Shown: positions 3,607 to 64,000 of the stretch, piece by piece
Position numbering within the stretch: the first letter of the stretch is position 1
Layout of the letters: each line of letters begins with the position of its first letter
Assembly: GCA_035566435.1 (NCBI GenBank)
Contig: DATMRF010000117.1
Span: forward strand, 127,052-191,051
Length of the DNA: 64,000 bases
Origin: Candidatus Acidiferrum sp.
Lineage (GTDB): Bacteria > Verrucomicrobiota > Verrucomicrobiia > Limisphaerales > UBA8199
Direction of reading: 5' to 3'
Notes under the pieces: generated by a model
Databases searched by the model: none
What the model saw: the letters and a program-made list of their open reading frames with translations, nothing else
Told to the model about the DNA's origin: nothing
Translations under genes and position numbers: made by a program

Positions 3607-3630
3607 CAGGACGCTGCCGCGTTGGCTCAA

Positions 3631-3665
3631 GGTTGCAGGGTTCAAGTTGCAGGTTGCCGGTTGGG
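3631..3665. repeat. GTTGCAGGTTG-type short tandem repeats in the PilX 5' region; the same family in reverse orientation sits at 42141-42177
   Basis: ggttgcagggttcaagttgcaggttgccggttgg here, versus caacctgcaacctgcaactttcaacctgcaac at 42141-42177. Confidence 0.6.
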
Positions 3666-5022: not shown

Positions 5023-5386
5023 CTTCCAAGAGCAAGATCGCTACCAGTTTTCATATGAATGAGAAGTAGCCAGTTTTAAGCCAAATCCAAGGCTGGCGCT
5101 AAATCCACGGCCGAGTCATTACGGGTGGATCACTCGTACTTATACGGAGGGTGTGTCCAGTTCCGGATCAGGAAGCCAACAAAGAACCGCGATTCACGCA
5201 TGGTTGGCTGCCTGCGGTTGCATTCAAGTTGCGACAAACGGTATCGATTCAAACAGCCTTTCTGCGAACGAGTTCATATCGCTTTACCGTGAGGTTTTGG
5301 CGCGGGAGTTGCTCCGCATTGTATGAGAACAAGACATGGTAGTGAGTAAGCTTGGTTTGCACACGCGCAAGCCGGAGCCGTTAGGC
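5023..5386. promoter_or_regulatory. Shared divergent promoter region between the two mirror-image pseudopilin modules
   Basis: A 364-bp, locally AT-richer gap separating the divergently oriented first genes (4498..5022 minus and 5387..5854 plus). GGAG lies 11 bp upstream of the ATG at 5387. Confidence 0.5.
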
Positions 5387-8201: not shown

Positions 8202-8203
8202 TT

Positions 8204-9658
8204 ATGTCTAGGCTCAGCGACTCCAAGCCCAATCCTTGGCATGGCGCTACGGAAGTCTTTCATCGCAAGCTTATCGCGCTGTGGTTGAGCCCGGCCCTCC
8301 GGGTCGGGCTTGTCGTGTTCAGCTTGGGGTTTTGGTGTGCTCGGCCGGTTTACGCCGCTGAAACGAATTCCTCCGGCCTGGAGATGCCGTTGATTACCGG
8401 GAATGACCTTGAAAGGGAATGGCTCCTCCAACATGCCAGGGAGACCCAGGAAGGCTACCGTGTCCGGGTGAAACTCACCGCCGACGCCGTCGCTGGAAAC
8501 GCTCCCGCTGTCGCTTTTGCCAAGGGCTCGACTCGGCCTCCAACCTTCGCGCCCGGCGGCCTGAGCCGAGATCTTTGGTTGGTGGCGATCCTTGGCATCG
8601 TCGTGCTCCTCGCCATCCGACGCCTTGCGCCCGAGCTCATGCAATCCGTTTCCTCACCCGCCAACCCCTCGGCGCTGGCGCCTTGGGCGCCTGCAGCTTC
8701 ATCGCCCCAGGATCGGGCCGAGCAGAAGGCCTTTGCAGAGTTTCTGGTCGCTTTCAAAGCCGGCCCGAAAGCGAGCACGCATACCGCACCACTTGTTGAC
8801 CCTTTCCCGGCTCCCCAGGTTTCAGCTGGCGCAGGTGGGGAGCTTCCTAAAACGCCGCCTGACCCGCTTAAAGATTTCTTTGCCCTCGCGCCGGCACACC
8901 TCCTGGCCGCGCGGAACGTTCTTCAGGAAATCGGACGCGGGCCCGAAATGGTGGCCCGGCAGAAGCTCCTGGGGGATCTCTGCGGCGAGGTTCGTATTTT
9001 GAAAGGGATGGCGGGTCTTCCCGAGTTGATCCCCGCGTGGCAACTGGCTGCCTGCCTGGAGTCGCTGCTTAAACAGCTGATCGCCCAACCCGGCAGGGTG
9101 ACCCCCTCCACGCTCAGGACGGTCGCCACGGGTGCGGATGTGCTCTGGGAGGTGTGCCAGCCTGGGCTCAAAGCGGATTTCTTTACCAACCCTCCTCTGC
9201 GGTTCCTGGCAGTGGATGACGACCCGATCAGTCGCCACGCGGTAGCTTTCTCCTTGAAAAAGGCGTTCACCCTGCCCGATGTCGCTGCGAGCGGCGAGGC
9301 GGCGCTGGCCCTGGCCTCGGAGCATGCCTACGACGCTATTTTTCTGGACGTGTTGATGCCCGGCATGGACGGCTTCGAACTTTGCTCCAAGATTCACCAA
9401 ACCCCCCTCAACCGCACCTCGCCCGTGGTGTTCATCACTTGTTTAACCGACTTTGAAGCACGTGCTAAATCCAGTCTCTCCGGTGGCACTGATCTCCTCG
9501 GCAAGCCGTTTCTGACCTTCGAGATTACCCTTAAAGCGCTCACGTTGACTATGCGCGCCCGGCTCCAAGCCCGCGGCGAGGCTGCCACCCCTGCCGGCGA
9601 AGGCAAGGCCCTCACACCGGTCCATTCTGCCAAGGCGAGCGAGGAAATTCCGGCCTGA
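8204..9658 (+). CDS. Membrane-anchored response-regulator receiver (REC) protein with an N-terminal transmembrane/helical region (possible degenerate Hpt-like segment)
   Basis: Table ORF 8153..9658, trimmed to the ATG at 8204, which lies immediately after the PilX-like stop. The C-terminal REC domain carries all hallmark residues: DDD, FLDVLMPGMDG, T (ITC) and K (GKPF). The mid-region ...LLGDLCGEVRILKGMAGLPEL resembles an Hpt helix, but the canonical HxxKG histidine is absent. Hydrophobic segments at LIALWLSPALRVGLVVFSLGF and LWLVAILGIVVLLAI. Confidence 0.6.
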   Translation: MSRLSDSKPNPWHGATEVFHRKLIALWLSPALRVGLVVFSLGFWCARPVYAAETNSSGLEMPLITGNDLEREWLLQHARETQEGYRVRVKLTADAVAGNAPAVAFAKGSTRPPTFAPGGLSRDLWLVAILGIVVLLAIRRLAPELMQSVSSPANPSALAPWAPAASSPQDRAEQKAFAEFLVAFKAGPKASTHTAPLVDPFPAPQVSAGAGGELPKTPPDPLKDFFALAPAHLLAARNVLQEIGRGPEMVARQKLLGDLCGEVRILKGMAGLPELIPAWQLAACLESLLKQLIAQPGRVTPSTLRTVATGADVLWEVCQPGLKADFFTNPPLRFLAVDDDPISRHAVAFSLKKAFTLPDVAASGEAALALASEHAYDAIFLDVLMPGMDGFELCSKIHQTPLNRTSPVVFITCLTDFEARAKSSLSGGTDLLGKPFLTFEITLKALTLTMRARLQARGEAATPAGEGKALTPVHSAKASEEIPA

Positions 9659-10467: not shown

Positions 10468-10505
10468 ACCGTTAACGCAAAGACGCAAAGGAGCAAAGCC
10501 GCAAA
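10468..10505. repeat. Solo copy of the (NCGCAAAG)n element TTAACGCAAAGACGCAAAGGAGCAAAGCCGCAAAGG
   Basis: It matches the left arm of the element at 16461-16635 and lies directly downstream of the cheY-like gene. Confidence 0.65.
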
Positions 10506-10509
10506 GGGG

Positions 10510-11649
10510 TTAGTGTGACGAAGCTCCGGCGAGGCTTTCATCATAGTGAATGCCCGCTGACCCGCTGAGGATAATTGTATCGGCCATGAACGCGCCACAT
10601 GCGTCGGCAGTGCCGCTAAAGGTAACGGCGGCCTCGGGCGCGTCCACCACACCGTAGAGCGTGGAGGTTCCGCTCAAAGTCATCCTGGTGCAGGTTGGGA
10701 GCCCGAAGATGAAGCAATTAGCTGCGCGCTGGCTGTCATTGATAATGCCCCGGCCGGAGACCGTGAGACTTCCCGCAACGAAAATCTGCAGGCTTGCTCC
10801 GGGTGCGATATAGACAAAACCGTTGCCGCTGGTGGCGAAGTCGCCGGTGACGTACAGGACAGCATTTCCCGTGACGGCCATGGCGTCTGCACCGGAAAGT
10901 TGGACGGCAGGCAGCTCGTAATTGCCGGAGCCGAGGACAAAGGTGTAATTCTGCCCGGCGAAGCTTCCGTCAGCAGGGAGGGAAGCCCCAGAGGTGAAGG
11001 GGACCTGGATGTCTTGAAATGAAAGGCCGGCGTCAGTGGTGGCATGTCCAGGTTGAATGCCGAATTGGCTGGCATTCCAAGCAAGGTCGCCGACCCCTCC
11101 CTTGCCGCAGATGATGGTGCCTCCGGCCCCGGTCGCCGCCATTCCGTAGATGTGGGCGGTACGGAGAGTGATGGCGCCCGCGGCTTGGGAGGCCGTCTGC
11201 GCGAGGGCGTGGTCGCGGCGTTTGGCCGGGTCGTAAAGTCCGCCCGTGCTAAGGGCCGGATCGCTGGAGTCAAAGCTATCGAGATAAGCGCCACCGTTGA
11301 AACGAATCTGGTTCCTGGCCATCAATCCGCCGGAAGCGTTGAACTGCGCGAGCCTGAAAAAGCGGCTGGTCTCACCTTGCGCGCAGGGACGTGAGCAAGA
11401 AAAAAAGCCGCGGGCGTCGGGGATCGCCGTGGTAACGGTTGACCAGACCGGGGCCTGAATATCGGTTGCAGTTTGCAGCAGGAACGGTTGCGCCGGCGCG
11501 CCGGCGCAATCAAGGCGGACCATTTGGTCAGCCGGCCGGCTGATGGAAAGAAGCGGCTGATTTTGCTGATTGCTGGCGAGAGCATCGCCCAACGAGCCCA
11601 GACTGAGGCTGGAGCACACCAAAGCTGCCAAGAAATTCCTTCTCATCAT
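10510..11649 (-). CDS. Secreted protein with an N-terminal FYR-motif beta-sandwich domain and a C-terminal domain homologous to the PilX-like protein 2392..3606
   Basis: Table ORF 10510..11709, trimmed to MMRRNFLAALVCSSLSLGSLGDALA, a Sec signal peptide. An AAGGAA ribosome-binding site lies upstream of the ATG at 11649. The N-terminal domain ends ...GETSRFFRLAQF. The C-terminal ...ANCFIFGLPTCTRMTLSGTSTLYGVVDAPEAAVTFSG...IHYDESL aligns with ...QNFFYFGLPGVTSITYAGTSSFVGCIYAPEADLTLNG...HYDFHFDEAL of the PilX-like protein. Confidence 0.6.
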   Translation of the reverse strand: MMRRNFLAALVCSSLSLGSLGDALASNQQNQPLLSISRPADQMVRLDCAGAPAQPFLLQTATDIQAPVWSTVTTAIPDARGFFSCSRPCAQGETSRFFRLAQFNASGGLMARNQIRFNGGAYLDSFDSSDPALSTGGLYDPAKRRDHALAQTASQAAGAITLRTAHIYGMAATGAGGTIICGKGGVGDLAWNASQFGIQPGHATTDAGLSFQDIQVPFTSGASLPADGSFAGQNYTFVLGSGNYELPAVQLSGADAMAVTGNAVLYVTGDFATSGNGFVYIAPGASLQIFVAGSLTVSGRGIINDSQRAANCFIFGLPTCTRMTLSGTSTLYGVVDAPEAAVTFSGTADACGAFMADTIILSGSAGIHYDESLAGASSH

Positions 11650-11811: not shown

Positions 11812-11880
11812 GGGGTGGTGGAGTGATGGATTAGTGGATTAGTGGATTGGTGGGGCCGGATCGATTACGAGAACGAGGAC
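11812..11880. repeat. Microsatellites: (GTGGATTAG) x 3 followed by (GAGGAC/G) x 5
   Basis: gatggattagtggattagtggattggtgg ... gaggacgaggacgaggacgaggacgaggg, located upstream of tRNA-Leu. Confidence 0.75.
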
Positions 11881-12003
11881 GAGGACGAGGACGAGGGTGA
11901 AAACGCTTGGAGTGATGGAGGGACGAGTTACCGCCGGCCAAAGGCGCTTGCGCCGGGCGGCGGGCGTTTGTATGTTGCGGGCGCATCACCTGGTTCGCCG
12001 GGC

Positions 12004-12207: not shown

Positions 12208-13296
12208 ATGAATGCCAAACAAAGTTATCCCCTCGGCGAGCGCTTGCTGCTTGGTGCAACATTGATGGGAGCGTTGTCCTGTTCAATCGCGGCGCAGGGC
12301 CAAGCTGATACGGCCAAACCGGGCTCGCAGGAGTCCATTCCCGTCCTGCCGCTGGAACAATCGGCGAGTCGCGGCATTACCACTCGGGATCCTTCCAGCA
12401 TTGTGAAATGCAAAGATGAATACTGGGTATTCTACACGGGCCGGGGCGTGCCTTCGTATCGTTCCGGGGACCTGGTGAAATGGGAACGCGGGCCGGCGGT
12501 ATTCAAAGCTGCACCGGAATGGATTGCCAAGATCGTTCCACAAAACCGCAACATGCAATGTTGGGCTCCCGACATCATCAAGCTGGGTGACCGGTATCTC
12601 CTTTATTATTCAGTTTCGTCGATGGGGAAAATGACCTCGGCCATCGGCCTCGCAACCAATCCCACTTTGGACCCGGACGATCCGGCCTGTCATTGGACCG
12701 ATCAAGGGTTCGTGGTGCGGACGCAGGACGGCGACGGTTACAATGCCATTGACCCGTCCGTGTTTCACGACCGCGATGGAAGCCTGTGGTTGACGTTCGG
12801 CTCTTATTGGTCCGGCATCAAACTGATTCAGCTGGATCCGCAGACCGGCAAACGAATGGCCCCAGATTCGAAGCTGTTTTCTATCGCTTACAATGAGTCA
12901 ATCGAAGCTTCGTATTTGTGCCGGCATGGCGACGATTACTATCTGTTTGTGAACTGGGGTAGCTGTTGTCGGGGCCCGAAGAGCACCTACAATATTCGCA
13001 TCGGGCGGAGCAAATCCGTCACTGGACCATATCTGGACAAGGCCGGTGTGGACATGCTGCACAGCGGCGGCAGTCTGTTTCTGGCGACGACCAACGGTCC
13101 ATTGATCGGCCCGGGACATGCCGGGACTTTGAACGCGCAGGGAAAGGATTGGTTCACGTCGGACTTCGAGGGTGACCTTCGGATGGATGGAAAAGCCACC
13201 CTGGCAATAATGCCGCTGCGTTGGAATGCGGACGGCTGGCCTGAGGCGACGGTGAATGATGTGAAGGGTGTTCGGTCCCCTCAACACATGCGTTAA
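12208..13296 (+). CDS. Glycoside hydrolase family 43 (endo-arabinanase-like)
   Basis: Table ORF 12172..13296, trimmed to the Met at 12208, giving a signal-like N-terminus. GH43 hallmarks: RDPS..WVFYTG, WAPDI, GDRYLLYYS, AIDPSVF, WGSCCRG. The last ~140 bp overlap the convergent AbrB-like ORF. Confidence 0.75.
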   Translation: MNAKQSYPLGERLLLGATLMGALSCSIAAQGQADTAKPGSQESIPVLPLEQSASRGITTRDPSSIVKCKDEYWVFYTGRGVPSYRSGDLVKWERGPAVFKAAPEWIAKIVPQNRNMQCWAPDIIKLGDRYLLYYSVSSMGKMTSAIGLATNPTLDPDDPACHWTDQGFVVRTQDGDGYNAIDPSVFHDRDGSLWLTFGSYWSGIKLIQLDPQTGKRMAPDSKLFSIAYNESIEASYLCRHGDDYYLFVNWGSCCRGPKSTYNIRIGRSKSVTGPYLDKAGVDMLHSGGSLFLATTNGPLIGPGHAGTLNAQGKDWFTSDFEGDLRMDGKATLAIMPLRWNADGWPEATVNDVKGVRSPQHMR

Positions 13297-16460: not shown

Positions 16461-16635
16461 AGATTTTAACGCAAAGACGCAAGGGTGCAAAGGCGCAAAG
16501 GCGGAAACCGGGTTTAGCCTTGGACGAGCGGCTCACCTTGCGGTGAGCTCAGCGGACCTGCGCTTCGGGCGCGGATTCCTGAGCCCCTTTGTGTCTTCGC
16601 CTCTCGGGGCCTTCGCGTTAAGGAGTTCGACTGAA
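16461..16635. repeat. ~175-bp MITE-like element with (NCGCAAAG) x 4 terminal repeats in inverted orientation
   Basis: Left arm 16461-16500: ttaacgcaaagacgcaagggtgcaaaggcgcaaagg. Right arm 16596-16635: cccctttgtgtcttcgcctctcggggccttcgcgttaagg, approximately its reverse complement. It lies between the moaD-like and doxX genes. Confidence 0.6.
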
Positions 16636-26468: not shown

Positions 26469-26541
26469 CGCTTGTCTTTCGCTTTGAATCACCAACCGCG
26501 GATTACGCAGATTGCACGGATTGCCCGTAGCCCACCCCCCA

Positions 26542-35317: not shown

Positions 35318-35423
35318 GCGTTGGACACTAAGGGTTGCTCAGTCCATTGCGCAAGCTCAAGATCCCAACGGCTTTCTGCTCATAGAGGGGTCACCCATTA
35401 GGGCGGGGTCAAGGGTGGCGGGG

Positions 35424-35561
35424 ATGAGATGGTTCCTGGGCACCTACACCAGCCGGTTTAACCGGCGGCACGAGGAATTTCGCCACCTGGTCAGCGGGCG
35501 GTATAGAGCCCTGGTAGTGGATGGCACCGGCAGCGGCTACCTGAAAACCGTCTGCTATTAA
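35424..35561 (+). pseudogene. Remnant of an IS200/IS605-superfamily Y1 (COG1943/RAYT-like) transposase: a central segment only
   Basis: It is the tail of table ORF 35133..35561. MRWFLGTYTSRFNRRHEEFRHLVSGRYRALVVDGTGSGYLKTVCY* matches the conserved Y1 core ...Y.s.fNrr.g..GHLwqgRf.s.lv.......l.ryI. The upstream HUH part is absent, and the upstream ORF portion overlaps the HGSNAT-like gene. Confidence 0.4.
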
Positions 35562-35951: not shown

Positions 35952-38900
35952 TTACCTTTCGCCCGCCTTCTGCAGAGTTACGCCGTCCTTGCTTAGCGTG
36001 ATCTTTCGCGCGCCTGCAGGCACTTCGAAAATATTCGTCGTTCCGCCTGGCCAACGCACCCAAAGCCCGGTGAGCGGTTCGGGGGTGGCGAGCACCTGGG
36101 TGGCTGCATCTTGCGACCAGTAACCGCCTCCGGCGCTGATCTCGCGCACCGGGCCGCTGCGGCTGCCGAACCTGGCCCGGATCTGCGTGCCAGCACCGTC
36201 CGGGTTGCCCCGTGGCCCGGACACATGCACCCGGAGGCCAGGTTTGGCGGAGGTGTTGTGGAACAAGCGCGTCTCCGCGCCATTTTGGCCGACCGCAAGG
36301 TCGACTCGCCCGTCTTCATCAAAATCGCAAACAGCAGCCCCACGGCCTTCTCCGTAAACGGTCAGGCCGCTGACCTGGCCTGGGACAGTTTCAAAATGAC
36401 CGTGTCCATCGCCACGGAGCAGCACCCCTCGACCGGCGTCACAACGCACCGCTTGCGGCTGAACACCAAAAAAGTTTTGAGCCAGGAACAAGTCTTCATT
36501 GCCGTCGCCGTCGAAATCCGCAACGCAGATTCCGAACGCCGGCGAGAGCTGCGCTTCCCGAGGCAGAACCACGGGCTCAAATTTTCCCCGGTGATTCAGG
36601 AAAACGGTCGAGGCCAGCCACGGCGCAGCCAGTTTTGAAGCTGAGCTGTATTGGTCACCGAGCACGTCCGCAACTGCGGCGTTATCGTACGCGGCATAGG
36701 TTTGAAATTTGGCGCTGACAAAAGGCAATCCCAGCTCCATTGCTGGTTTGGCGCGTATCGGAACGACTTTGCCGAGTTCCGAGTCGTACTCGGCTTCAAT
36801 GACATCGACCCCGTGGCTGCCGGTAAAGTCGCCCCAAAACACCAGCGGCACGCCCGGTCGGTCCTCCCCCTTGTAATCCGCAATCAATGCTGGCCGCTCG
36901 TAACCGTCGGGCCCGCCGTTCAGGCCCCAGTTCGAGGCCGCGATATCCAGCAAACCGTCTCCGTCGAAATCTCCGACGGTGACGCCGTGCCACCAACCGA
37001 CGTAGGAATCGAGTCCCAACTCTGCGGTGGCTTCACGGAGGCGGCCATGTTCGTTTAAGAACACGCGAATCGGTCCCCACTCGCAGGCCAAAACCAGGTC
37101 CGGCCAGCCATCTCCGTTTAAATCCGCGAAGATCGCTCCGCTAACCAGCCCGAGATTGGCCAGTTGCATCGTGTTTGTCAGATCCAACACGTACTGGCCA
37201 TTCTGGTTTTCGAACAGCAACGAAGTAGCCGGCGCCGGCCATTTGCCGGGAACGCACCTGCCGCCGACAAACAGATCGAGCCGCCCGGTCCCATGCACGT
37301 CCGCCAGCGCCAGCGGACCCGAACTGGATTCCTGCCCGGCAAAGGAGTCCGACACCGTCCCGGACTTTAGATCATAGATGCGCAGCATCGGGCCGGTAGA
37401 GTGGCCATCCTCGTAATTGCTTGACCCCACCAGGACCACCGGATTTTGGCCGTTGCCCGCAGCGCCCACGGCGCCAGTCTGGTCTCGGCCCACTCCCGCC
37501 GATACCGAGGGATTATCGACCGCGGTGAAACCACCATTGCCATCATTGCGAAACACCGCGATCCGGCCGCCCTTGCCGCTGCCAATGATCAAATCTTCGT
37601 GCCCGTCGCGATCGAAATCGAACCAGGAGATCCCGGGTCCAAGCTGGCTAAGTTTGCGCGGCAATAAAGGTTGCCGAACTAAATCATCAAAGGGGTCATC
37701 ATGATGAGAATGGTGCAGGCGCGAGCTGAGATCCTCAAACAGAGGTTTGGCTGGCGGTGCCTCGCTCGCTCCCGAACCGTGGAGCTGGGACGCGCTCTCG
37801 GCAATCTCGTACAAATAGTCCGGGCTTGGATTCTCCACGACGCTTTCGGTTCCTGAGCGCCAGTGCACTTTCAACTGCAGGTGAATGGCATTGGGCATCG
37901 GTGTCGAGTCAGGGTGAGACTGGGACCAACGGCTGCGCAGCGCCTGAGTCACGTCGGCGGCGAACACGCGCATCGGTTCATCGCTGCTGAGATAACGCCC
38001 GCCCGCGCACATTTCCTGGCTTTGAACGAATTTGACAGTGGCCGCGCTCGGTGGAGATTTTGGAGGGACGAGCTCCCGCGAGTCCCCTTCATTTTCCGTC
38101 TGATGACCCACCTCGGCAATGAGTTCAACCCTCGCTCCAATCCCGTGCGTGTTGGGAGAATTGCCTTTCAATCGGACCGCAATCCGCGGGGCGGAGCTGT
38201 TGTTCCGATAGATTCCGGCGACGCCGTTGAGGTTGTTGACCACCACGTCCAGGTCGCCGTCATTGTCCAGATCACCAAATGCCATGCCCTGAGTGACGCC
38301 AGGTTGGTTGAAACCCCAGGCAGCGGCCGCGTCTTCGAAGGTTAAATCACCTCGATTGCGAAACGCCTGCTTAGGCTGGGTCATTCGAGGATAAAGCAGC
38401 AGCTTCTGCGGCACTTTCTCGCGCGGCCACGGGCCCTTGGCGCGAATCCGCGCCTCGGCATCCAGGTCCTGGGTATCGAATTCATGACTGGTCGTACACA
38501 GCAGATCTTCGTAGCCGTCTAGGTCCACATCGAGAAAGGCGCCCAGCCACGTCCATTCCGTGGCCGGCAGCCCCGCGTACGGCGCGATATCGGCAAAGGT
38601 ATTATCCCCGCGATTCAATTGCAGCGCGTTGCGATCAAACTGCGGACGATCTTCGTAAACTCCCACCGCGGGGAGATACGGAGCTGTTTCTGCCAATTGC
38701 AGCAAGCGCCGCGAATGTCTGGGGCTGAGCATGTCGGCCACGAACAAATCAAAATGACCATCCCGGTTGATGTCGGCCACATCCACGCACATGGAAAACG
38801 ACGGTGTGTGGCGAAACATCAGCCCCGGCGCGGCGCGAAAATTTCCATGTCCGTCATTGAGCCAGATCCGATCTTCGGTCTGAAAATCGTTGCAGATATA

Positions 38901-39803
38901 TAGGTCAGGGTAGCCGTCACCGTTCAAATCGCGGCACACAACCGTCAGCCCCCAATCCAAGGGAGCTTTCGACAACGCCTGGCCATGCTCGTCTCGGAAC
39001 CGGCCGTCGGTCCACGAGACCGGGGTGAAGTGACCGTGGCCGTCATTGAGGTAAAGCACGTCCGGCTCGCCGAGTTCGAGCACGTGGCCGTCTGGCGTCA
39101 TTTCGAGCCGGTCACGGTCTTCTGGACGCACCATCATTTTCTCCCCCCTCTGGAGGATCAGGTAGCCGGTGGTCCGCACAGTTTCGGCACGGTAATTGGC
39201 CACGTACAAATCCAGGGCACCGTCACCATCGATATCCGCCAACGCCAGGGTCGTGGCGCCGTATTTGCGAAGCAGCCCGCTGTTCTTTGACTCAGTGAAA
39301 TGCCCCCTGCCGTCGTTGATGAAAAGCCGCGTGCCCGTTCCGATCCCGTTGACGAGCAGGTCCAGGTGTCCATCCCCGTCCACATCCACCAAGGCCGCGC
39401 CAGTTGAATATTGACCGTCGCAAGCGACGCCGGCTTGCTCGGTCACATCCTCGAAACGCCAGTTGCCGAGGTTGTGGTAAAGGACATTGTGGTTGTCCAA
39501 ACCGCAGAGATAGATGTCGCAAAGACCGTCGCCATCGACATCGCCCAGCGCCACACCCGCCCCATTGAGCCGAATCTGGTTTTCCGCCGCCCGCGCATCG
39601 CTCAGAACATTGGTGAAGTGAACGCCCGTTTCGCTCGGCGGCAGCAGAGTGAATCCGGGTTTGCCCCCGGACGGCACCGGCAATGCAGCGCGCCGGCCAT
39701 AAGGCTCGGCTTCCCATCGTAAATCCGCAGCCACGAGTGAAGCGGCGCCGAAGATCAGAGCCGAACAGAAAACGGAGCGCATCAGCCTAAGCGACATCAT
39801 CAA
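35952..39803 (-). CDS. CRTAC1-family protein (ASPIC/UnbV plus FG-GAP repeats), duplicated architecture (1283 aa), secreted
   Basis: Table ORF. Many DxDGDGxxD FG-GAP-like repeats (DVDGDGLCD, DVDGDGHLD, DIDGDGALD, DLDNDGDLD...). Two UnbV_ASPIC-like segments (...GIGARVELIA..., ...GAGTQIRARFGSRSGPVREISAGGGYWSQDA...). A TTG/ATG start cluster overlaps the upstream gene's stop. Confidence 0.7.
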   Translation of the reverse strand: MMMSLRLMRSVFCSALIFGAASLVAADLRWEAEPYGRRAALPVPSGGKPGFTLLPPSETGVHFTNVLSDARAAENQIRLNGAGVALGDVDGDGLCDIYLCGLDNHNVLYHNLGNWRFEDVTEQAGVACDGQYSTGAALVDVDGDGHLDLLVNGIGTGTRLFINDGRGHFTESKNSGLLRKYGATTLALADIDGDGALDLYVANYRAETVRTTGYLILQRGEKMMVRPEDRDRLEMTPDGHVLELGEPDVLYLNDGHGHFTPVSWTDGRFRDEHGQALSKAPLDWGLTVVCRDLNGDGYPDLYICNDFQTEDRIWLNDGHGNFRAAPGLMFRHTPSFSMCVDVADINRDGHFDLFVADMLSPRHSRRLLQLAETAPYLPAVGVYEDRPQFDRNALQLNRGDNTFADIAPYAGLPATEWTWLGAFLDVDLDGYEDLLCTTSHEFDTQDLDAEARIRAKGPWPREKVPQKLLLYPRMTQPKQAFRNRGDLTFEDAAAAWGFNQPGVTQGMAFGDLDNDGDLDVVVNNLNGVAGIYRNNSSAPRIAVRLKGNSPNTHGIGARVELIAEVGHQTENEGDSRELVPPKSPPSAATVKFVQSQEMCAGGRYLSSDEPMRVFAADVTQALRSRWSQSHPDSTPMPNAIHLQLKVHWRSGTESVVENPSPDYLYEIAESASQLHGSGASEAPPAKPLFEDLSSRLHHSHHDDPFDDLVRQPLLPRKLSQLGPGISWFDFDRDGHEDLIIGSGKGGRIAVFRNDGNGGFTAVDNPSVSAGVGRDQTGAVGAAGNGQNPVVLVGSSNYEDGHSTGPMLRIYDLKSGTVSDSFAGQESSSGPLALADVHGTGRLDLFVGGRCVPGKWPAPATSLLFENQNGQYVLDLTNTMQLANLGLVSGAIFADLNGDGWPDLVLACEWGPIRVFLNEHGRLREATAELGLDSYVGWWHGVTVGDFDGDGLLDIAASNWGLNGGPDGYERPALIADYKGEDRPGVPLVFWGDFTGSHGVDVIEAEYDSELGKVVPIRAKPAMELGLPFVSAKFQTYAAYDNAAVADVLGDQYSSASKLAAPWLASTVFLNHRGKFEPVVLPREAQLSPAFGICVADFDGDGNEDLFLAQNFFGVQPQAVRCDAGRGVLLRGDGHGHFETVPGQVSGLTVYGEGRGAAVCDFDEDGRVDLAVGQNGAETRLFHNTSAKPGLRVHVSGPRGNPDGAGTQIRARFGSRSGPVREISAGGGYWSQDAATQVLATPEPLTGLWVRWPGGTTNIFEVPAGARKITLSKDGVTLQKAGER

Positions 39804-42055
39804 TGGTGATGATGCGGTGGCACGCTGTTGGTATCAATGCGGAAGCTCTTGAGGTTCCAGGGAGTGGCCTGAGCCTGGTCTTCCCGGACTTTATAGAACC
39901 GATCCATCGTCAGGCCGGTAAGAATTTGAGTGCGGCCGGTCCGGGGCCAGAAAATTTCCACCTGAGCGATGGATTGCGCCTGGCCAAGGCCGATTTCCTG
40001 GCGTAACGGAGAGGCGCCGAAACTGCCGCCGGTTCCCACGGTTTTGTAGTAACTGCGTTCACCGGAGGCACTCCGGACCACGACGCGGATCCGAGCGCCG
40101 ATCGCCGCCCGATTTGATTGAACCCCTTCGAGCTTGAGCGTGACCCAATGATTGCTGGTGCCCGGATTCAAGTAGAGCACGTTGTGATAAACGTCGCCGC
40201 TGACCGCGCCACCCATGTTTTCGTAAATGTCCTGATTTCCGTCATTGTCGATGTCGCCGAACGACACGCCATGGCCCTTCTGTAGATTACCGAAACCCCC
40301 GGCGGTTGTGACGTCCTGAAACCTTTTGCCGGCGTCGTTACGGAACATCCGATTTGGCACAATCGTCGCCAGGTCCGGGTCACCGGTTCCGAGATAAAAA
40401 TCCAGATAACCGTCGTTGTCCAGGTCTCCAAAGTTGGAGCCCATGGCGTGCAAGACGTGGTAAAGCCCCATTTGTTGTGTTACGTCGGTGAACGTCCCAT
40501 CGTGATTGTTGTGGTAAAGGCGGGCCCGCTCGGCATTGGTCGGCAGCCCCAGGTAATCCGCGCAAATATCCCCAACATTATTGATGCGATAGCCGGAAAC
40601 AAAGAGGTCATCCCAACCGTCGTTATCGTAGTCAAAGAACCAGCAGGGAAAACTGTAGAGCGGCTCGGTCACCCCGGCCTGCCTGGCGACATCGGTGAAC
40701 TTCCAGATTGGCTTGCCCGCCGCGTTGGTGCCAGCGGGTCCGTCGTTGCGAAACAAAACATTGGGCGCGCCTAGAACTGAAAGGTACAGATCGGGCCGGC
40801 CGTCGTGGTTGAAATCCGCGCTGCAGACACCTTTGACAAACCCAATGAAGCCCACGCCGCACTCCAGGGCGCATTCGGTAAACGTGCCGTCATGGTTATT
40901 GTGGTAGAGCTCGCAACGATTGGTGCTTGGTCCAACCGATTCGTGGCCGACGAACAAATCGAGCCAGCCATCATTGTCGTAGTCGAACCACACCGCTGTC
41001 TGAGAAGGTTTGAGGGAAAGCAACCCTGCCGCCTCGGTTACATCCTCAAAGGTGCCGTCGCCGTTATTGCGCAATAAAGATTTCGGTAAGCGGCCTTCGT
41101 CCCGCAACCAGGCTCCGCGCAACACCAACACGTCGGGAAAGCCGTCGTTATTATAATCGGCCTGGATCAGGTTCAATCCGCCGACTTCTCCCAGCAGCCC
41201 TGCCTGTTCGGTTCGTTCGCTGAACGTGCCATCCCCGTTATTGTGATAGAGGCGAAGTTGATCCTGAAAGCCGATCGAGGAACACATTATGTCCAGATTC
41301 CCGTCCCCATCGAAGTCCTCCAAAATGCTGCCGCCCGATCGCTTCATCGGGTCCACTCCCAGCGCGCCCGCGACGTCTGGAAAGTGTTCGAGCGGGTATG
41401 CCGAAGCAAAGGCGCTGGGCGGGACCAACCATCTGGCCGGCACTTTGTCCGGGTATTCGCCCACCGTCATGCTGGCAATATTCAGTAGCCAGCGAGCGGA
41501 AAGGTCGTTCGTGTTTTGTTCAAGAACTTCCGTGAGGATTTGAATGGCGTGGCGTGAGCCCTCCTGGAATCGATGAATGCCCCGACCCTGGATCGGCGCC
41601 AGGCATGATTCGGGATTATGGTCCGCCAGGCAGTTGGTCATCTCGCCAATCCTCATCCAGCAGAGCGCTTCCTTGAGCTTTAACGTCGACCAGTTCCTTT
41701 TCGAACCTTCCGGGTTGTATGCTCTGAACCCGCTCTCGAAGCCTTCGAACTCCCGCAGCGCGTCCTCGTTCTGGCCGGAGTCCAATAACTCGCAGGCCAG
41801 GGAATATTGCAGATTCAAATGTTGAGCGGGATCCTTGGTTTCCGCCACCTTCGCTCGCAGCAGCTTGGCGCGCTCGGTATTCAGAAAAATATTGTTCACC
41901 GGGTTTGCCTGAGCTGCCAGTTTTTGCAGCCGCTCCGCCATGCCAATCGTGCCGGGCCCCCGCGGATCCCGCGCCGCCTCGGCCGAAAAGCCGTGGAACC
42001 CGCCAGCGAAGACCAAGGAAAGAAGGCACAGCAACGCTCGGCCGCGCAGCGCCAT
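39800..42055 (-). CDS. CRTAC1-family protein (TPR-like N-terminal region plus FG-GAP repeats plus ASPIC/UnbV), natural C-terminal His4
   Basis: Table ORF 39800..42160, trimmed to the Met giving a signal-peptide-like MALRGRALLCLLSLVFAGG. Repeats DFDGDGNLD, DYNNDGFPD, DYDNDGWLD, DLDNDGYLD, DIDNDGNQD. UnbV-like ...AIGARIRVVV...SGERSYYKTVGTGGSF.... Ends ...PPHHHH*. Confidence 0.65.
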   Translation of the reverse strand: MALRGRALLCLLSLVFAGGFHGFSAEAARDPRGPGTIGMAERLQKLAAQANPVNNIFLNTERAKLLRAKVAETKDPAQHLNLQYSLACELLDSGQNEDALREFEGFESGFRAYNPEGSKRNWSTLKLKEALCWMRIGEMTNCLADHNPESCLAPIQGRGIHRFQEGSRHAIQILTEVLEQNTNDLSARWLLNIASMTVGEYPDKVPARWLVPPSAFASAYPLEHFPDVAGALGVDPMKRSGGSILEDFDGDGNLDIMCSSIGFQDQLRLYHNNGDGTFSERTEQAGLLGEVGGLNLIQADYNNDGFPDVLVLRGAWLRDEGRLPKSLLRNNGDGTFEDVTEAAGLLSLKPSQTAVWFDYDNDGWLDLFVGHESVGPSTNRCELYHNNHDGTFTECALECGVGFIGFVKGVCSADFNHDGRPDLYLSVLGAPNVLFRNDGPAGTNAAGKPIWKFTDVARQAGVTEPLYSFPCWFFDYDNDGWDDLFVSGYRINNVGDICADYLGLPTNAERARLYHNNHDGTFTDVTQQMGLYHVLHAMGSNFGDLDNDGYLDFYLGTGDPDLATIVPNRMFRNDAGKRFQDVTTAGGFGNLQKGHGVSFGDIDNDGNQDIYENMGGAVSGDVYHNVLYLNPGTSNHWVTLKLEGVQSNRAAIGARIRVVVRSASGERSYYKTVGTGGSFGASPLRQEIGLGQAQSIAQVEIFWPRTGRTQILTGLTMDRFYKVREDQAQATPWNLKSFRIDTNSVPPHHHH

Positions 42056-42140
42056 CGCGGAACTTGGTCTGAATCCGAGTAAAATTCGGCAGAAAAACTT
42101 TCTCACATGATCGGGTTTCGAGTGAACCGTACCTCGAATC

Positions 42141-42177
42141 ATCCAACCTGCAACCTGCAACTTTCAACCTGCAACAG
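42141..42177. repeat. CAACCTGCAAC tandem repeats (reverse orientation of the 3631-3665 family)
   Basis: atccaacctgcaacctgcaactttcaacctgcaac. Confidence 0.6.
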
Positions 42178-42236
42178 ACATAACGCGTTCGTTCAAAGCT
42201 TGCCTCAACGTCGGCGCTAATAGGGGTCGGTGATAA

Positions 42237-42638
42237 CTATTGACATTTTTCATCTTCTTTGCGCTTTTGCACCAAGCAGTTTGACACGTGCTTCCATGCG
42301 CCCATGTTAAGCCGACGGGCGATCCATTTCAATGTCATCGTGGTGCGGGCGCGCAACTGGCAAGCGATCTCGACCTTCTCCGGGTCGCCTTTGCGCCGGC
42401 AGTTGAGCTCCGCTTCCGCCCAGCCTCGCCGGCGTAATTCCTCCTTTACGACGCGCTCGGCATGTAACAGGTCGGCGTCGCGCAACTCGGGTCCATAGGG
42501 GTCGGCGCGGCGCTCGTGCATCTGCGCCAACAGTTCCTCTTTGAACGCCTTGTCTCCCGGAAACCAGCCTCGTTCCACGGCTTTCCAGTCAGCCGGGAAA
42601 CGGGTCGAACCGTAGATTGGAACTGGAGTCGTGCGCAT
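42237..42638 (-). pseudogene. C-terminal fragment of a long Y1 (RAYT-like) transposase with a DnaA-C-like HTH tail
   Basis: Table ORF of 133 aa. ...RRKGDPEKVEIACQLRARTTMTLKWIARRLNMGAWKHVSNCL matches the remembered C-terminal extension of Planctomycetes/Verrucomicrobia COG1943 transposase-like proteins. No in-frame N-terminal HUH domain lies upstream; the adjacent frames are junk. Confidence 0.4.
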
Positions 42639-42940
42639 GGCGCCGTTTCCATTGCGGGTTTCTCACGGGGATGCACCCAATGATATGCATCCCCAAGCTC
42701 GCCGTCCGCTACCAGCCCAGGAAGGCAGTTTTTGCGACCCTTCGTGCCCTTTTGTGGCTAAACATTTTCTCCCCGCCGTCCAACCCCGCCCCTCGCCCCT
42801 CGACTCTCGACCATTCCTGACTATTCCACGCAGGATACTTTGGGATGCTTTTGCGACACTTTTGGGACGCTTTGAAAATGCAAAAACCTGGGTAAATAGG
42901 CCCTTGGGACGCCGGGACGCTTCGTTTACCCCCTCGCCGC

Positions 42941-43920
42941 ACGCGAAAGAATCACGACCGCCCGGCAACCCTGTCACCCTCAAGGCCAAAGGTTGCCACA
43001 AACCTTACCGGCGACCGGCTCGCTTCTTGCCAACCCTTGCCCGCGACTCGAGACTTGAGACCTGTCACCGTTTGTCACCGTTTGTCACCGCTGGAAACGC
43101 ACAGATCCATCGGTAAACACGGGCTTGTCACCGTGTCACCGCTGTTTTACCCCCCTTCAGCACACATTACTTTTTACACCCTCCCTCCGCGTACCTGGGT
43201 CGGCCGGCCCGGTATCCGCCACTCACAGTCAGTATCACCTAACCTTCAGGGATCAGCCCTTGCCAACCCTCATGGATCATCCTTGTCAACCTCAAGGATC
43301 AGCCTTTGGCAACCCCTGAAACGCGCAATCACTCGGTAAATACGGCGGGTGGAAACGTTTCCACCCATGGATCACCCCTGGATCACCCCCTGGCGCGAAA
43401 GAAAGAATCACGACTGCCCAGCGACCCTGTCACCCTACAACACCAAAGAAAGCTCACCGGCGACCCGCTCAATCCGTGTAATCCGTGTAATCCGTGGTCC
43501 AAACCTCCTTTGTCACACTGTCACACCCTGTCACGCGCAGCCGGCTATTCTCCACCTTCCCTCCCTCCCTTTCCGCGTGTTCCGTGTATTCCGCGGTTCA
43601 TTGACGCTCCTGTCACGGGTTTGTCGCGGCTTTGTCCCGGATTTGTCCCGGATTTGTCACGGCTCAAAAACCGCTAAAATTTCCCAGCAAATACCGCGTT
43701 GTCACGGTGTCACGGGTCAAAACCACCCCCCTGCGCGCACAACACCATCGCCGTCCCCAGAGCCTCACCCTTCCGCCATTCCCGGCTGGCGTCTTCCCCG
43801 GTCCAGCGACACTCCTGTCACACCTTGTCACGGTTCAAAGCGTGACAGGGTGAGCCTTGTCACGCTTTCAAAAGTGAAAATCCCTCGTCAAACACGGCCT
43901 TGTCACGGTGTCACGCTTTG
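42941..43920. repeat. Array of about 20 same-strand TGTCAC hexamers (often as 8-10 bp spaced doublets) plus an ~80-bp direct repeat (42941-43020 vs 43392-43475), 10-12-bp tandem duplications and palindromes; ORF-free
   Basis: Read directly; see the finding at 42640-44810. The 190-aa ORF 43349..43921 is a repeat translation (CHGVT recurring) and is not called. Confidence 0.8.
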
Positions 43921-44826
43921 AAAGCTCTCCACCCCACCCTCGCCGGAGAAAATAAAATTTATCCTTCAGCCTTTAGCCTTCCCATCCCAACTGCCGATAG
44001 CTCCCGCTGGCCTGTCCCCGCATCCGCACCTATCTGCAGCCATCTGCAGTCATCTGCAGCCATGTGCATAGTGAAAGTCTTCCCCACCCCGTCTGCACTC
44101 GATTACGCTTAATTTCAGCTACGGACGCCCAATTACGGGAAATTCCTCCAGGGCCGAACTGCAGTTTTCGCCTTTCTGCCCGCGCCCGCCTTCGTGCTCT
44201 GCCCCTGTCAACTGTCAACTTTCCAAAGTTGACACAATCGTTCTTCTCAACTTCGACCAACCGCGGCCAACCGCGGCCAACCGCGCGCTTCCCGGTCAAA
44301 GTTCAGCCCACATCGATATCACCTAATAACACTTTATATCAGTTACTAACACCTACTACCGCGTACTAACACTTCCCGCATTTTGCCACGAACTGTTATT
44401 CGCTCCCCGCACCCAGCCCGATCATCACTTTGTGCCTTCTTGTCGTTATTCGGTCCTCGTCCGTGCCATCCGTGTCATCCGTAGTTCAACACCTCCCCGC
44501 TCAAGTTCGCTCTCGCAAAAACTCGACCAATCTCGACTAATCTTGAGTAATCTCGACCAAAATTAATTTCCCCCTTTCAGGGACTTCGGACGTTGGCCTT
44601 TCGACCTAGCGGGCAAACCGACGTTTTCTCTGGGAAAAAGCGGACCTGACCCTGCTGGGACGACGTGAACGTGTACTACGTCTTGGGCACATTGGTCGTC
44701 AGAACAGGGCCGATCAGACGAACCCCGGCCTGCAGACGCCCCGGTTTCGGAACGTTCAGTTTTAGGTTGAAATTCTTCGCTGACAGTGGATATTAGTAGA
44801 GGTATAAGAGCAGATTGGGTGATTTT

Positions 44827-45150
44827 ATGAAAACATCCCCGTTCATTCTGGCGTCCGTCATCACATTGGCTGCTGCTTCTGGCGTCTCGGCTGGCGACCG
44901 GCCCAAGACCGACAAGGCCACTACTACTCCGGCGGCGGAGCCGGCGAAGGCCTCACCGGCCCAGACTCAAGCCCCGCTGAAGGAAAAGAAGGTCGAAATC
45001 ACCGGGTCGTACGTGAAGCGCGAGGTCCGGCGTAATGGCCAAATCACCGACGGCATGAACCCGGTGCTGGTGATTGACAGCAAGTCTATCCAGACCAGTG
45101 GGGCTTCGGATCTGCGACAGTTGCTTGTCCGTCAGGGCGTCAACCGTTAA
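44827..45150 (+). CDS. Small secreted hypothetical protein (possible TonB-receptor-plug-like N-terminal remnant)
   Basis: Table ORF 44815..45150; Met at 44827 gives MKTSPFILASVITLAAASGVSA, a signal peptide. ...ITDGMNPVLVIDSKSIQTSGASDLRQLL is faintly plug-like. Low confidence. Confidence 0.3.
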   Translation: MKTSPFILASVITLAAASGVSAGDRPKTDKATTTPAAEPAKASPAQTQAPLKEKKVEITGSYVKREVRRNGQITDGMNPVLVIDSKSIQTSGASDLRQLLVRQGVNR

Positions 45151-45377
45151 CGCCGGGTCCGAAGTCCGTTCAGTTTGTGCAAACATTGGCGGGCGTGGCT
45201 ATTGCCGCGCCAGTCGAGTTCTTAATTTGGGTCACGGGTCCCCGTCCGCTGGCGCGAATAGGGTTAAAGACTCCTTCCGCCTCCCTTCCTTCCGTGAACC
45301 CCATCGAGCCCGCGGTTCGGAACCGCCGCAGACGTTTTTCCATTTGAACTTGCAATCCTGGACCTTAGCCTGTCCGG

Positions 45378-46403
45378 GTGAATCAGAACGTGCCGAGCGT
45401 CACGGTGTTGATCGCCGCCCGCCCGGGCCAGGCGGAGGTTAAGGCCGTTGACGCCAGCCGTGCGCTGGATTATCCGGCCGACAAACTGGAAATCATTGTG
45501 GCCCGGGGCAAACAGCCCTCGGCCCAGCGCAACGCCGCGCTGAAAGCCGCGCGCGGAGAACTCACCTACTTTCTCGACGATGATTCCTTGCCGGAGGCTG
45601 CAAATCTGCGGCGAGCCATCGCACACTTCAGCAGGCCGGAGGTCAAAATGGTCGGCGGCCCGAATGTCTGCCCGCCGGCGGCGCCCGAGCTGGAGCAAGT
45701 CTTTGCGCTAGTGTTAGGAAGCTGGCTGGCACTCGGGCCGAGCCGCGCACGGTACACACCGGTGGGACAGGTCCGCGAGACCAGCGAGAAGGAATTGATT
45801 CTGTGCAACCTGGTCGCGCGCCGGGACGCGATGCTGGAGTTAGGGGGGTTCAACGAAGCACTCTATCCCAACGAAGAAAATGCCTTGATGGACGAGCTGC
45901 AGAAGCGCGGGGGCAAGCTCGTTTATGACCCGGCGTTTGTGGTGCATCGGCGGCCCCGTCCAAATCTCGCGGCGTTTGCCAGGATGCTGATGACTTATGG
46001 GCGTGGCCGGGCGGAGCAATTCAGGCTGCACCCCACTCCCGGGTCGGCGCTCAACTTTGTCCCGCCGCTCTTTCTGGTTTACCTGGTGTCGTTGGTTGCC
46101 GTGCCCTGGGTCGGGACGATTCTTTTGGTCCCCCTCGGGGTGTACGGCTTGGCGGTGTTGACGCAGGCGGCGGTCCTGAGAGTCTCAAGTCCCAAGTCTC
46201 AAGTCCCAGGTTCGCACTCCACGGTCCAAAGTCCACCTACGAGTACAGGGCAACAAGTATTTCGGCGCGTTGCGGTGATTCCGCTGATCTGTCTGACTCA
46301 TGTGCTCTATGGTGCGGGGTTCTGGCGAGGCTTGTTCACGAGGCTGGGCACCGGTGCGCAGCCGCCGCCGCCGGCAGTGGTCCTTGAGACTGTCGCGCGG
46401 TGA
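45378..46403 (+). CDS. Family 2 glycosyltransferase (GT2) with a C-terminal membrane region; contains an in-frame repeat-element insertion
   Basis: Table ORF. VTVLIAARPGQAEVKAV... DYPADKLEIIVARG...QRNAALKAARGELTYFLDDDSLPE shows the GT2 DxD. The C-terminal TM helices are interrupted by the S/P/Q-rich segment LRVSSPKSQVPGSHSTVQSPPTSTGQQ, encoded by the dispersed repeat at 46176-46255. Confidence 0.65.
   Translation: MNQNVPSVTVLIAARPGQAEVKAVDASRALDYPADKLEIIVARGKQPSAQRNAALKAARGELTYFLDDDSLPEAANLRRAIAHFSRPEVKMVGGPNVCPPAAPELEQVFALVLGSWLALGPSRARYTPVGQVRETSEKELILCNLVARRDAMLELGGFNEALYPNEENALMDELQKRGGKLVYDPAFVVHRRPRPNLAAFARMLMTYGRGRAEQFRLHPTPGSALNFVPPLFLVYLVSLVAVPWVGTILLVPLGVYGLAVLTQAAVLRVSSPKSQVPGSHSTVQSPPTSTGQQVFRRVAVIPLICLTHVLYGAGFWRGLFTRLGTGAQPPPPAVVLETVAR
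46176..46255. repeat. Dispersed (AGTCTCAAGTCCCAG)n-CACGGTCCAAAGTCCAC element, copy located inside the GT2 CDS (in-frame)
   Basis: gagtctcaagtcccaagtctcaagtcccaggttcgcactccacggtccaaagtccacctacgag. The same family occurs at 1878-1928, 48086-48175 and 51828-51890. Confidence 0.75.
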
Positions 46404-50276: not shown

Positions 50277-50344
50277 TCGCAGGTTGCAGTCGGGCGGTGG
50301 GAAGTCGGAAGTGCGAAGAGCCCTGGGCTCGCTTGCCCCGGCCG

Positions 50345-63695: not shown

Positions 63696-64000
63696 CCGCC
63701 TGAATATTGAACCACCCGAATCCCGCACGCAATGTGTTTGATGTGAGGGATTACCGAGAGGCTAAAGTGCTCCGGCGCGGCAGACGACTTTGGGCCAAAC
63801 TACGCACCACGCTTCACGTTTCACGCATCACGAATCCCGCAGCCCGCATGACGTATCACGCATCACTCTTCCCCCTCCGTTCAATCGTTGTGCCTGACCT
63901 CCCGCGTTGGCAGACTCACCCCCTCATTGAAACACGCGCCCGATACTGAGCCATCGAGGTCGGAGGCCCGGCTGGGGATTATCCTCGGTGTCGGGGCGGT

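Follow-up and report, generated by a model that had tools for sequence, protein, structure and literature searches.

Repetitive extragenic palindromes (REPs) and bacterial interspersed mosaic elements (BIMEs), together with the terminal inverted repeat (TIR) families of the RAYT and TIRYT transposases (REPtrons and TIRtrons), are short, lineage-specific, high-copy repeats that lie between genes and are clustered in mosaics. The REP itself is an imperfect palindrome, 20-40 bp in length and tagged with GTAG or CGTC, whose copies flank the cognate Y1 transposase gene and are cleaved or bound by its product, and the RAYT-associated REP families are reportedly covered by Bertels and Rainey in 2011. 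Iterated motifs also occur at origins: iteron-type plasmid origins have iterons of ~17-22 bp at a ~22-bp register, one array per replicon and an adjacent Rep gene; the DnaA boxes of oriC are 9-mers, partly in an 11-bp register, that are bound by domain IV of DnaA; and the HUH-Rep replicon origins (geminivirus, circovirus) have short, lineage-specific iterons beside an invariant nick-site element. In parC, the centromere of plasmid R1, a 39-bp promoter core has five direct iterons of 11 bp on each side, 159 bp in total (PMC2241845). Here, we describe an island without protein-coding open reading frames (ORFs), at 42640-44810 of a 64-kb stretch of DNA from Candidatus Acidiferrum sp. (the whole stretch being the window, to which coordinates refer unless otherwise labelled), which contains units of a co-oriented, multi-copy iteron-core-iteron family, and compare it with these systems.

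In the island, intergenic repeat modules that belong to one interspersed, lineage-specific family of soil Verrucomicrobiota (Pedosphaerales-type) are piled up against the stump of a decayed TIRtron, and the family is probably best read as REP/BIME-like but built from iterons, not hairpins. It shares with the REP, BIME, RAYT and TIRYT families the properties listed above, and it lies beside a RAYT-like Y1 transposase gene whose relatives have GGGGWSAS TIRs and a Bac_DnaA_C-like C-terminal domain. It differs from them in that its units are neither palindromes nor hairpins and bear no tag, have direct iterons that form two blocks with a conserved core between them, fall into several iteron classes, are strictly co-oriented rather than alternating and have no detectable similarity to TIRs, and in that the adjacent transposase gene is a stump. 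If this is correct, bacterial intergenic repeat families are not limited to hairpin-type REPs and miniature inverted-repeat transposable elements; the unit would instead be one of direct, swappable recognition motifs with a fixed core, and would offer an insight into the origin of the large ORF-free islands of soil Verrucomicrobiota genomes.

Plan of the repeat unit

The GC skew of the island is -0.26 on the plus strand, a strong excess of C over G, so that the informative strand is the G-rich minus strand, on which the flanking ORF also lies. The region was read on the minus strand and compared with L001, a paralogous locus from the same organism, and with further sequences (the other L-numbers), mostly soil-metagenome contigs. 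Briefly, a core profile was built from nine copies, soil-metagenome contigs were fetched with an 18-nt core pattern and then searched, and 48 distinct units were extracted from the stronger core matches, 15 of which were aligned.

The unit is ~150-175 bp long; the window has five of them, arranged head-to-tail, each on the minus strand. Along the G-rich strand it consists of an AT-rich patch (..TAAAAnGTnTTGTGCGC..), a G-run, two iterons 8 bp apart, the core, and three to five iterons at 10-12 bp. The core is a conserved stretch of 36-40 nt, CAAGGCCGTGTTTACCGAGGGATnTGTGCGTTTTCAG (also written CAAGGCCGTGTTTACCGAGGGAT..TGCGTTT), and the iteron is a 7-8-nt motif, the same on both core flanks within a unit. 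No inverted repeats were visible at the ends of the units as read, a dedicated TIR search not having been run, and an internal inverted copy is present in only one unit, the units otherwise being direct repeats. The iterons fall into classes, most of them CGTnnCA variants with GA, CC or GC as the central dinucleotide (GTGACA, GTCCCA, GTGCCA; also GGGACA and TTGACA), and a further class, the GATCC type (GGTGATCC/GCTGATCC), lies outside this skeleton; the window has three units of the GTGACA class, one of the GATCC class and one of the GCGTCCC class.

The relation between the two iteron blocks is what suggests a function for this plan. Left and right iterons belong to one class in 37 of the 48 units (left spacing 8, right spacing 10-12), a concordance that amounts to few ancestral changes and not to 37 independent ones, because the members of a class share a common ancestor. 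Hybrid units are few (L202_151, L145_592, L202_480 and L189_7000) and look like products of recombination within the core. The core is kept across all iteron classes and the spacers between iterons vary, with 35 distinct 15-mers among 43. Since left and right iterons change together across a conserved core, they may be cooperative binding sites, with a sequence-specific protein gripping both core flanks.

These features also bear on the reading of the island as non-functional debris, that is, a junkyard of decayed mobile elements and slippage microsatellites, with iterons that have no binding partner and a shared plan that reflects the common descent of duplicated segments. Slippage explains a change of copy number within a block, but neither one motif change on both core flanks nor the strict co-orientation of the units, described below, which points to a directional process; the conservation of the core across classes, with spacers between iterons that vary, also speaks against debris, and we regard it as an unlikely explanation. 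Several things do speak for it: short 6-12-nt tandem arrays are frequent in intergenic DNA, with 29 in the 13 kb of intergenic sequence of the window and only 13 in the 51 kb that ORFs cover; the number of repeats in an array differs from one copy to another, and neighbouring repeats vary in step (L189, L153); and such clusters contain a transposase stump and an IS256 insertion.

The iteron plan also explains the feature by which the locus had been singled out in a preliminary description, namely 20 exact TGTCAC hexamers and three single-mismatch variants. The count is reproduced: of the 38 TGTCAC on both strands of the window, 20 lie inside 42972-43914 and 18 across the other 63 kb, and the degenerate copies are at 43622 (TGTCGC) and at 43633 and 43644 (TGTCCC). 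The near-uniform strand likewise stands (19 of the 20 on the plus strand, one on the minus strand; p = 4e-5), as do the doublets, gaps of 8 and 10 bp being the commonest between successive hexamers. The excess over chance is also borne out, 0.135 being expected on the plus strand in 943 nt (background, the rest of the window) against 19, although the Poisson P of about 2e-34 treats as independent events hexamers that are not independent, because they sit within duplicated repeat units. The number of TGTCAC is due to the GTGACA-class iterons, which read TGTCAC on the plus strand: 14 of the 20 are in the three GTGACA-class units, one is at a unit edge, three are in a coreless block at 43511-43535 and two are in a ~90-bp module. 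The earlier likening of these iterated, same-orientation, roughly helically phased sites to protein landing sites is thus supported, with a conserved core at their centre.

Dispersal of the family and its genomic settings

The core profile gave 66 matches at E <= 0.01 in 36 sequences, and the full-unit model (nhmmer) gave 64 matches in 25 sequences, the window included, both being counts of copies on metagenome contigs and not counts per genome. In the window the full-unit model finds the five units, all inside the island, and none elsewhere. Almost all of 42800-44430 has counterparts of 75-95% identity on more than 20 other contigs, where the order differs and each contig has them on a single strand, and no match on other contigs extends beyond 44428. 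The co-orientation holds in 16 of 16 sequences that have two or more units (45 units). Some units form head-to-tail, satellite-like arrays of fixed period: 159 bp in L153 (2409-2727), ~165 bp in L202 (151-480) and 239 bp in L105 (201-679). The adjacent units of the L202 array are hybrids of different iteron classes.

The clusters fill 1.4-5-kb, ORF-poor, G/C-skewed gaps between ordinary genes. Their neighbours are unrelated (phosphoketolase, NmrA, aldehyde dehydrogenase, ceramidase and others) and stand in convergent, divergent and tandem arrangements, and no protein gene recurs beside the clusters, only translations of the repeats doing so, except for an IS256-family transposase at two loci. 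One of these is an IS256/Mutator-family transposase (PF00872, 7.5e-56) inserted mid-cluster at L150 6812-8113 (-); the other is a related fragment at the edge of another cluster, at L173 1052-1324. The surroundings of 80 TIRYT loci from other Verrucomicrobiota species yielded no units, and a scan of viral contigs for the core gave 15 matches, all to the 18-nt pattern alone (10-14 bits) and none a true unit, so that the family is a narrow one. The units would be non-autonomous and selfish, kept and multiplied for their own sake and not for any service to neighbouring genes.

The recurrence of the units speaks against the proposal of the preliminary description that the island is a single special locus, be it an iteron origin, a partition site, the decayed origin of a plasmid or integrative and conjugative element (ICE), or a chromosome-organising site. 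The units recur at many intergenic loci with unrelated neighbours, and the outcome that the proposal had itself named as fatal largely came about, since the same population carries TGTCAC-bearing units between genes at many further places. In its specific form, in which a plasmid or ICE once integrated and since decayed would have left an iteron-type origin or a partition (centromere-like) site behind, or the chromosome itself would have an origin-like site here, the reading is given scarcely any credence. By analogy it might draw on iterons that flank a core as in R1 parC, with an AT-rich patch adjoining, and it might also draw on the neighbouring ORF with its DnaA-like DNA-binding fold. No Rep, ParB, ParR or other Par gene, integrase or relaxase gene was found in the 64 kb, however, where 26 genuine predicted proteins were scanned with Pfam and the genes are ordinary chromosomal ones (GH32, GH43, GH76, GlnE, YmdB, SpoU, CRTAC1-like and others). 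A blastn search against 72,556 plasmids gave no match, and neither did phages; the iterons are of 6-8 nt at 8-12 bp, not of 17-22 bp at ~22 bp; the units are multi-copy; and the dip of the cumulative skew at the island is local repeat composition, with no sign switch and no turning point.

Comparison with the individual systems leads to the same picture. With R1 parC the units share same-orientation direct iterons about one helical turn apart, in two blocks, around a core of ~36-40 bp, and 159 bp is also the minimal unit length in the L153 tandem array. They differ from it in that the window has no parR/parM, parAB or other partition gene, the unit core has no recognisable promoter, the units are present in dozens of chromosomal copies with several classes side by side, and the blocks are asymmetric, with two copies at 8 bp against three to five at 10-12 bp. 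The HUH-Rep origins offer a looser analogy, in that a short (5-8 nt), lineage-variable iteron stands beside an invariant core in what may be an HUH/Y1 enzyme context; the unit core differs in having no stem-loop or nonanucleotide, and the units in having no Rep gene and in being chromosomal and multi-copy. DnaA box arrays differ in that the iterons do not match TTATCCACA, that no dnaA or dnaN is nearby, that the units are multi-copy and that the neighbouring ORF has no DnaA AAA+ domain.

The same genomic settings bear on the possibility of a cis-regulatory or nucleoid-protein landing pad, in which high-occupancy sites for a regulator (for example, one of the OmpR/PhoB type that recognises TGTCA direct repeats) would control the flanking CRTAC1-like operon or a small secreted protein, or would organise the local chromosome. 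The island does lie in a divergent intergenic region, its architecture may be likened to that of R1 parC, where operators are arrayed about a promoter in the core, and the 10-11 bp spacing, direct orientation and TGTCA core have what we take to be a likeness to Pho-box-type sites. Such a role is nonetheless distinctly improbable, as the genes on either side of the units have unrelated functions and may be convergent, divergent or in tandem, three iteron classes stand side by side in one island, and the core has no sigma-70-like promoter, a scan of 42000-45400 having found three promoter-like sites, none of them in a core, against 1.3 in shuffles. Compared by eye, the core does not fit a sigma-70, extracytoplasmic function (ECF) or sigma-54 promoter, an IHF site, dif, attC or an HUH hairpin nick site.

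Very improbable, in turn, is a non-coding RNA locus, whose transcript, of the G- or the C-rich strand, would serve through its heptamers as a CsrB-like sponge or scaffold for an RNA-binding protein. No Rfam family was found at threshold; the folding z-scores of the five units, both strands being folded, run from +0.7 to -3.2 with no common fold; RNAalifold over the 15 aligned units gives zero conserved pairs; and the units have no consistent promoter or terminator. These results outweigh the strand asymmetry, the many copies of one short motif and the absence of ORFs, all of which such a locus would display. At gathering and relaxed thresholds the Rfam scan returned only tRNA elsewhere and a sub-threshold twister-P5 at 43119-43162 (-), inside a GTGACA unit, which at 20.6 bits against 37.6 and E 0.36 is taken as chance.

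The adjoining TIRYT stump and a possible mobiliser

The left flank of the island is formed by a 133-aa ORF at 42237-42638 (-), which had been described as the C-terminal remnant of a transposase, and rightly, its homologs extending into a Y1 transposase. Its first 16 residues are unrelated to the TIRYT family and homology begins only at residue 16-17, so that it is the 5'-truncated stump of a TIRYT (a RAYT-like Y1 transposase) of which only the DnaA-domain-IV-like C-terminal domain is left, aligning only to residues ~197-308 of a full-length protein. The ORF has 177 homologs, the more distant of which extend ~200 aa upstream with an IS200-like Y1_Tnp domain (PF01797 at 1.6e-11 in the L020 protein); it gives no Pfam or NCBIfam match itself, and thus lacks the Y1_Tnp catalytic domain with its HUH motif and catalytic Tyr. 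The C-terminal domain that remains resembles DnaA domain IV and has the Bac_DnaA_C-like helix-turn-helix of subclass 2.1, a domain of unknown target (Quentin 2018; PMC6006769).

In the TIRYT/TIRtron arrangement the transposase gene is accompanied by TIRs with the consensus GGGGWSAS (Di Nocera 2013; PMC3733652). The right TIR of the decayed TIRtron is preserved at 42223-42245 (-), reading GGGGTCGGTGATAACTATTGACA on the plus strand and overlapping the 3' end of the ORF, and is the single exact match in the window, where none is expected. No left TIR or second TIR copy is present anywhere in the 64-kb window, and GGGGWSAS TIRs on both sides are therefore lacking. Full-length relatives have TIRs on both sides in 45 of 64 cases, typically AAAGGGGTCAGTTCTTGATATTG, 16 having tandem 10-13-mers in a TIR, and many TIRYT TIRs have tandem 11-12-bp iterons of the GGGGWSAS type. 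The closest relatives (L204, L206 and L207; 70-81% identity) are intact, internally deleted or frameshifted TIRtrons that have kept both TIRs, and the TIR of the window stump is the one found on both of their flanks.

All three known TIRYT stumps of this lineage, the one in the window and two in L001, have clusters of units on the same side and the same strand, and on one side only. Because of this adjacency, and because TIRYT TIRs can hold tandem 11-12-mers and the domain with which DnaA binds its boxes is similar to the C-terminal domain of TIRYT, we speculate that the trans-acting partner or mobiliser of the units may be a TIRYT-type protein acting through its DnaA-like domain, and that a single-strand-specific HUH/Y1 reaction could have produced the strict co-orientation. 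In its most developed form, which we consider possible but doubtful, the family would be an undescribed class of bacterial interspersed element, the iteron analogue of REPs, in which the core is gripped on both sides by a TIRYT-derived, DnaA-domain-IV-like binder, specificity is reset through the central dinucleotide (CGT-GA-CA, CGT-CC-CA, CGT-GC-CA), propagation proceeds by one-strand Y1/HUH chemistry, and truncated ORFs with only the binding domain, such as that in the window, are retained as binders or inhibitors. If so, it would be a natural system for the co-change of a DNA-binding specificity and its sites, and a route to the target of the DnaA-like domain in TIRYT and RAYT-like transposases, which the literature leaves open; the family would gain in interest if that domain read the iterons.

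Several observations, besides the shared descent and the per-contig counting already mentioned, weigh against both the element interpretation and its link to TIRYT. The window has no intact TIRYT gene, and most clusters have no TIRYT sequence on the contig stretches examined. TIRtron ends searched with the unit model had no similarity to it, and a resemblance between an iteron 11-mer and a TIR 11-mer (7-8/11) is within chance given the number of comparisons, so that what connects the units with TIRYT is adjacency and shared style. Slippage by itself makes part of the pattern, because all intergenic DNA of this genome is rich in short tandem arrays, and we infer mobility from dispersal only. 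A comparison through exact and homologous neighbours, in which one contig ended 201 nt from the ORF and another locus was not syntenic, brought to light no empty site, target duplication or defined insertion boundary.

Further remnants of TIRYT genes are present in the window and in related sequences. A second fragment, at 35367-35555 (+), corresponds to Y1-domain residues ~59-119 and is 67% identical to the L020 protein; it and the C-terminal stump at 42237-42638 (-) are on opposite strands and bracket a CRTAC1-like gene pair at 35952-42160. The breakpoints of the TIRYT stumps differ among the window, L001 and L003, the last being another Verrucomicrobiota metagenome-assembled genome. In L003 an internally deleted TIRtron has an intact left TIR at 7824-7875 (GGAAAGGGGTC x3 then TATTGACAT) ~50 bp from a Y1-less gene at 7900-8390. 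The named relatives of the stump and of the CRTAC1-like gene are mostly from Verrucomicrobiota, and the NCBI label of the source genome, 'Candidatus Acidoferrum sp.' (Acidobacteriota), looks mistaken.

Layout of the island and tandem arrays elsewhere

The island has a GC content of 0.557 against 0.598 in the remaining window, so that the lower GC content noted earlier is real but modest, the skew, which had gone unmentioned, being the stronger feature. Its lack of protein-coding ORFs holds: the two longest ORFs have no Pfam family match, and the region is not a pseudogenised coding sequence. Such repeat islands break metagenome assemblies and produce spurious ORF calls. All example sequences quoted in the preliminary description were located in the island, and its tandem duplications were recovered by Tandem Repeats Finder (TRF), with some coordinates corrected below.

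Read on the minus strand, the features of the island follow one another in plus-strand coordinates as follows. The GCGTCCC-class unit (42816-42960; nhmmer 74 bits) has two copies 8 bp apart, the core GGGCCTATTTACCCAGGTTTTTGCATTTTCAAAG and three to four copies at 10-11 bp. It is overlapped by the first copy of the ~90-bp dispersed module (42930-43021), which has one TGTCAC, at 42972, belongs to the direct repeat families D4 and D13 and matches L182; the second copy (43386-43470) has its TGTCAC at 43428 and is of the same families. These two copies are the ~80-bp direct repeat reported earlier, which is genuine, at 80-86% identity, with the limits given here in place of the original ones. Between them lie two units. 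The first, of the GGTGACA class (43043-43195; nhmmer 98 bits), is 89-92% identical to copies in L150, L182 and L001 and has five TGTCAC, two to one side of the core (43126, 43134) and three to the other (43063, 43073, 43083). The second is the GATCC-class unit (43264-43414; nhmmer 86 bits), with GGGGTGATCCA x2 then GGCTGATCC-type x3, 85-92% identical to L164, L102, L113 and L001; it has no TGTCAC and contains the 20-bp palindrome GGGTGGAAACGTTTCCACCC, which was correctly recognised but lies at 43347-43366 and not at 43349-43368.

Beyond the second module, 43471-43535 is composed of a 9-mer array, ACACGGATT x2.9 (43471-43496, TRF), and a coreless run of three GTGACA (43511, 43519, 43529). The array had been reported at 43471-43497 with a 10-nt unit; it is present, and the unit is of 9 nt (AATCCGTGT x2.9). 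The coreless run at 43511-43535 resembles a right-hand iteron block, and the block GTGACAGGGTGTGACAGTGTGACA also ends the L150_6314 unit. Another 9-mer array, TACGCGGAA-type x2.8 (43571-43595, TRF), belongs to a class also found in L003 and L150. Two CGTGACA-class units come next. The one at 43601-43773 (nhmmer 81 bits; 80-85% identity to L085, L171 and L173) has exact hexamers at 43611, 43655, 43700 and 43708 and the three degenerate copies at an 11-bp period. The one at 43819-43972 (nhmmer 78 bits; 87-90% identity to L150, L182 and L001; inverted repeat I1) has five hexamers, including the sole inverted copy (43842), with a sixth at 43816, just beyond the edge of the model.

The remainder of the repeat-rich sequence consists of modules and arrays. 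Dispersed modules at 43958-44068, comprising GGCTAAA x3.3, GGGAGCTATC and GCTGCAGATG x4.8 (TRF), match L102, L164, L178 and L001, and at the equivalent place L001 has GGTGCCGATA x4 instead of GCTGCAGATG x4.8. At 44205-44285 a GTTGACA palindrome with direct copies (44205-44233) is followed by CCGCGGTTGG x2.9 (TRF), with matches in L102, L113, L150 and L182; the second palindrome of the preliminary description, GTCAACTTTccAAAGTTGAC, is found here, at 44214-44233 in place of 44209-44228. A dispersed module of 10-nt period (GTGTTAGTA / GTGTTATTA / GTGATAT) at 44306-44428 forms family D2, with 78-91% matches to L178, L179, L153, L117, L001 and L182, and the arrays TGGCACGGA x2.6 and ATTGGTCGAG x3.9 at 44460-44560 (TRF) are the last repeat-rich stretch. 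The interval 44561-44810 is unique sequence upstream of a small plus-strand ORF starting at ATG 44828, which the mechanical call placed at 44815-45150, starting at TTG.

Arrays of 6-10 nt, of many different sequences, also lie in ordinary intergenic DNA of the window, often beside gene starts or tRNA (813-870, 918-967, 1905-2041, 10475-10506, 11827-11896, 16470-16507, 26499-26524, 50297-50318 and 63802-63866), examples being GGTTATCA x7.4, TTAGGTGCCG x5 and ACGCATC x9.3. Tandem arrays in intergenic DNA are a genome-wide trait, for which we offer no explanation. In L003, recurring pairs of inverted heptamer or nonamer arrays make hairpins out of tandem repeats (3016-3107, 5257-5327, 10570-10703, 5094-5151, 9384-9444 and 13205-13277), with ACGAATG xn facing TTCGTCA xn, CACGGAACA facing TTCCGTGTA, and CGAGGGT facing GACCCTC. 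The CACGGA-type 9-mers of L003 are also present in the window, at 43471-43496, 43571-43595 and 44460-44482. Finally, CAACCTG x4.6 lies at 42144-42175, between the end of the CRTAC1-like gene and the TIR, and the inverse heptamer, AGGTTGC x4.9, is found 38 kb away at 3630-3663.

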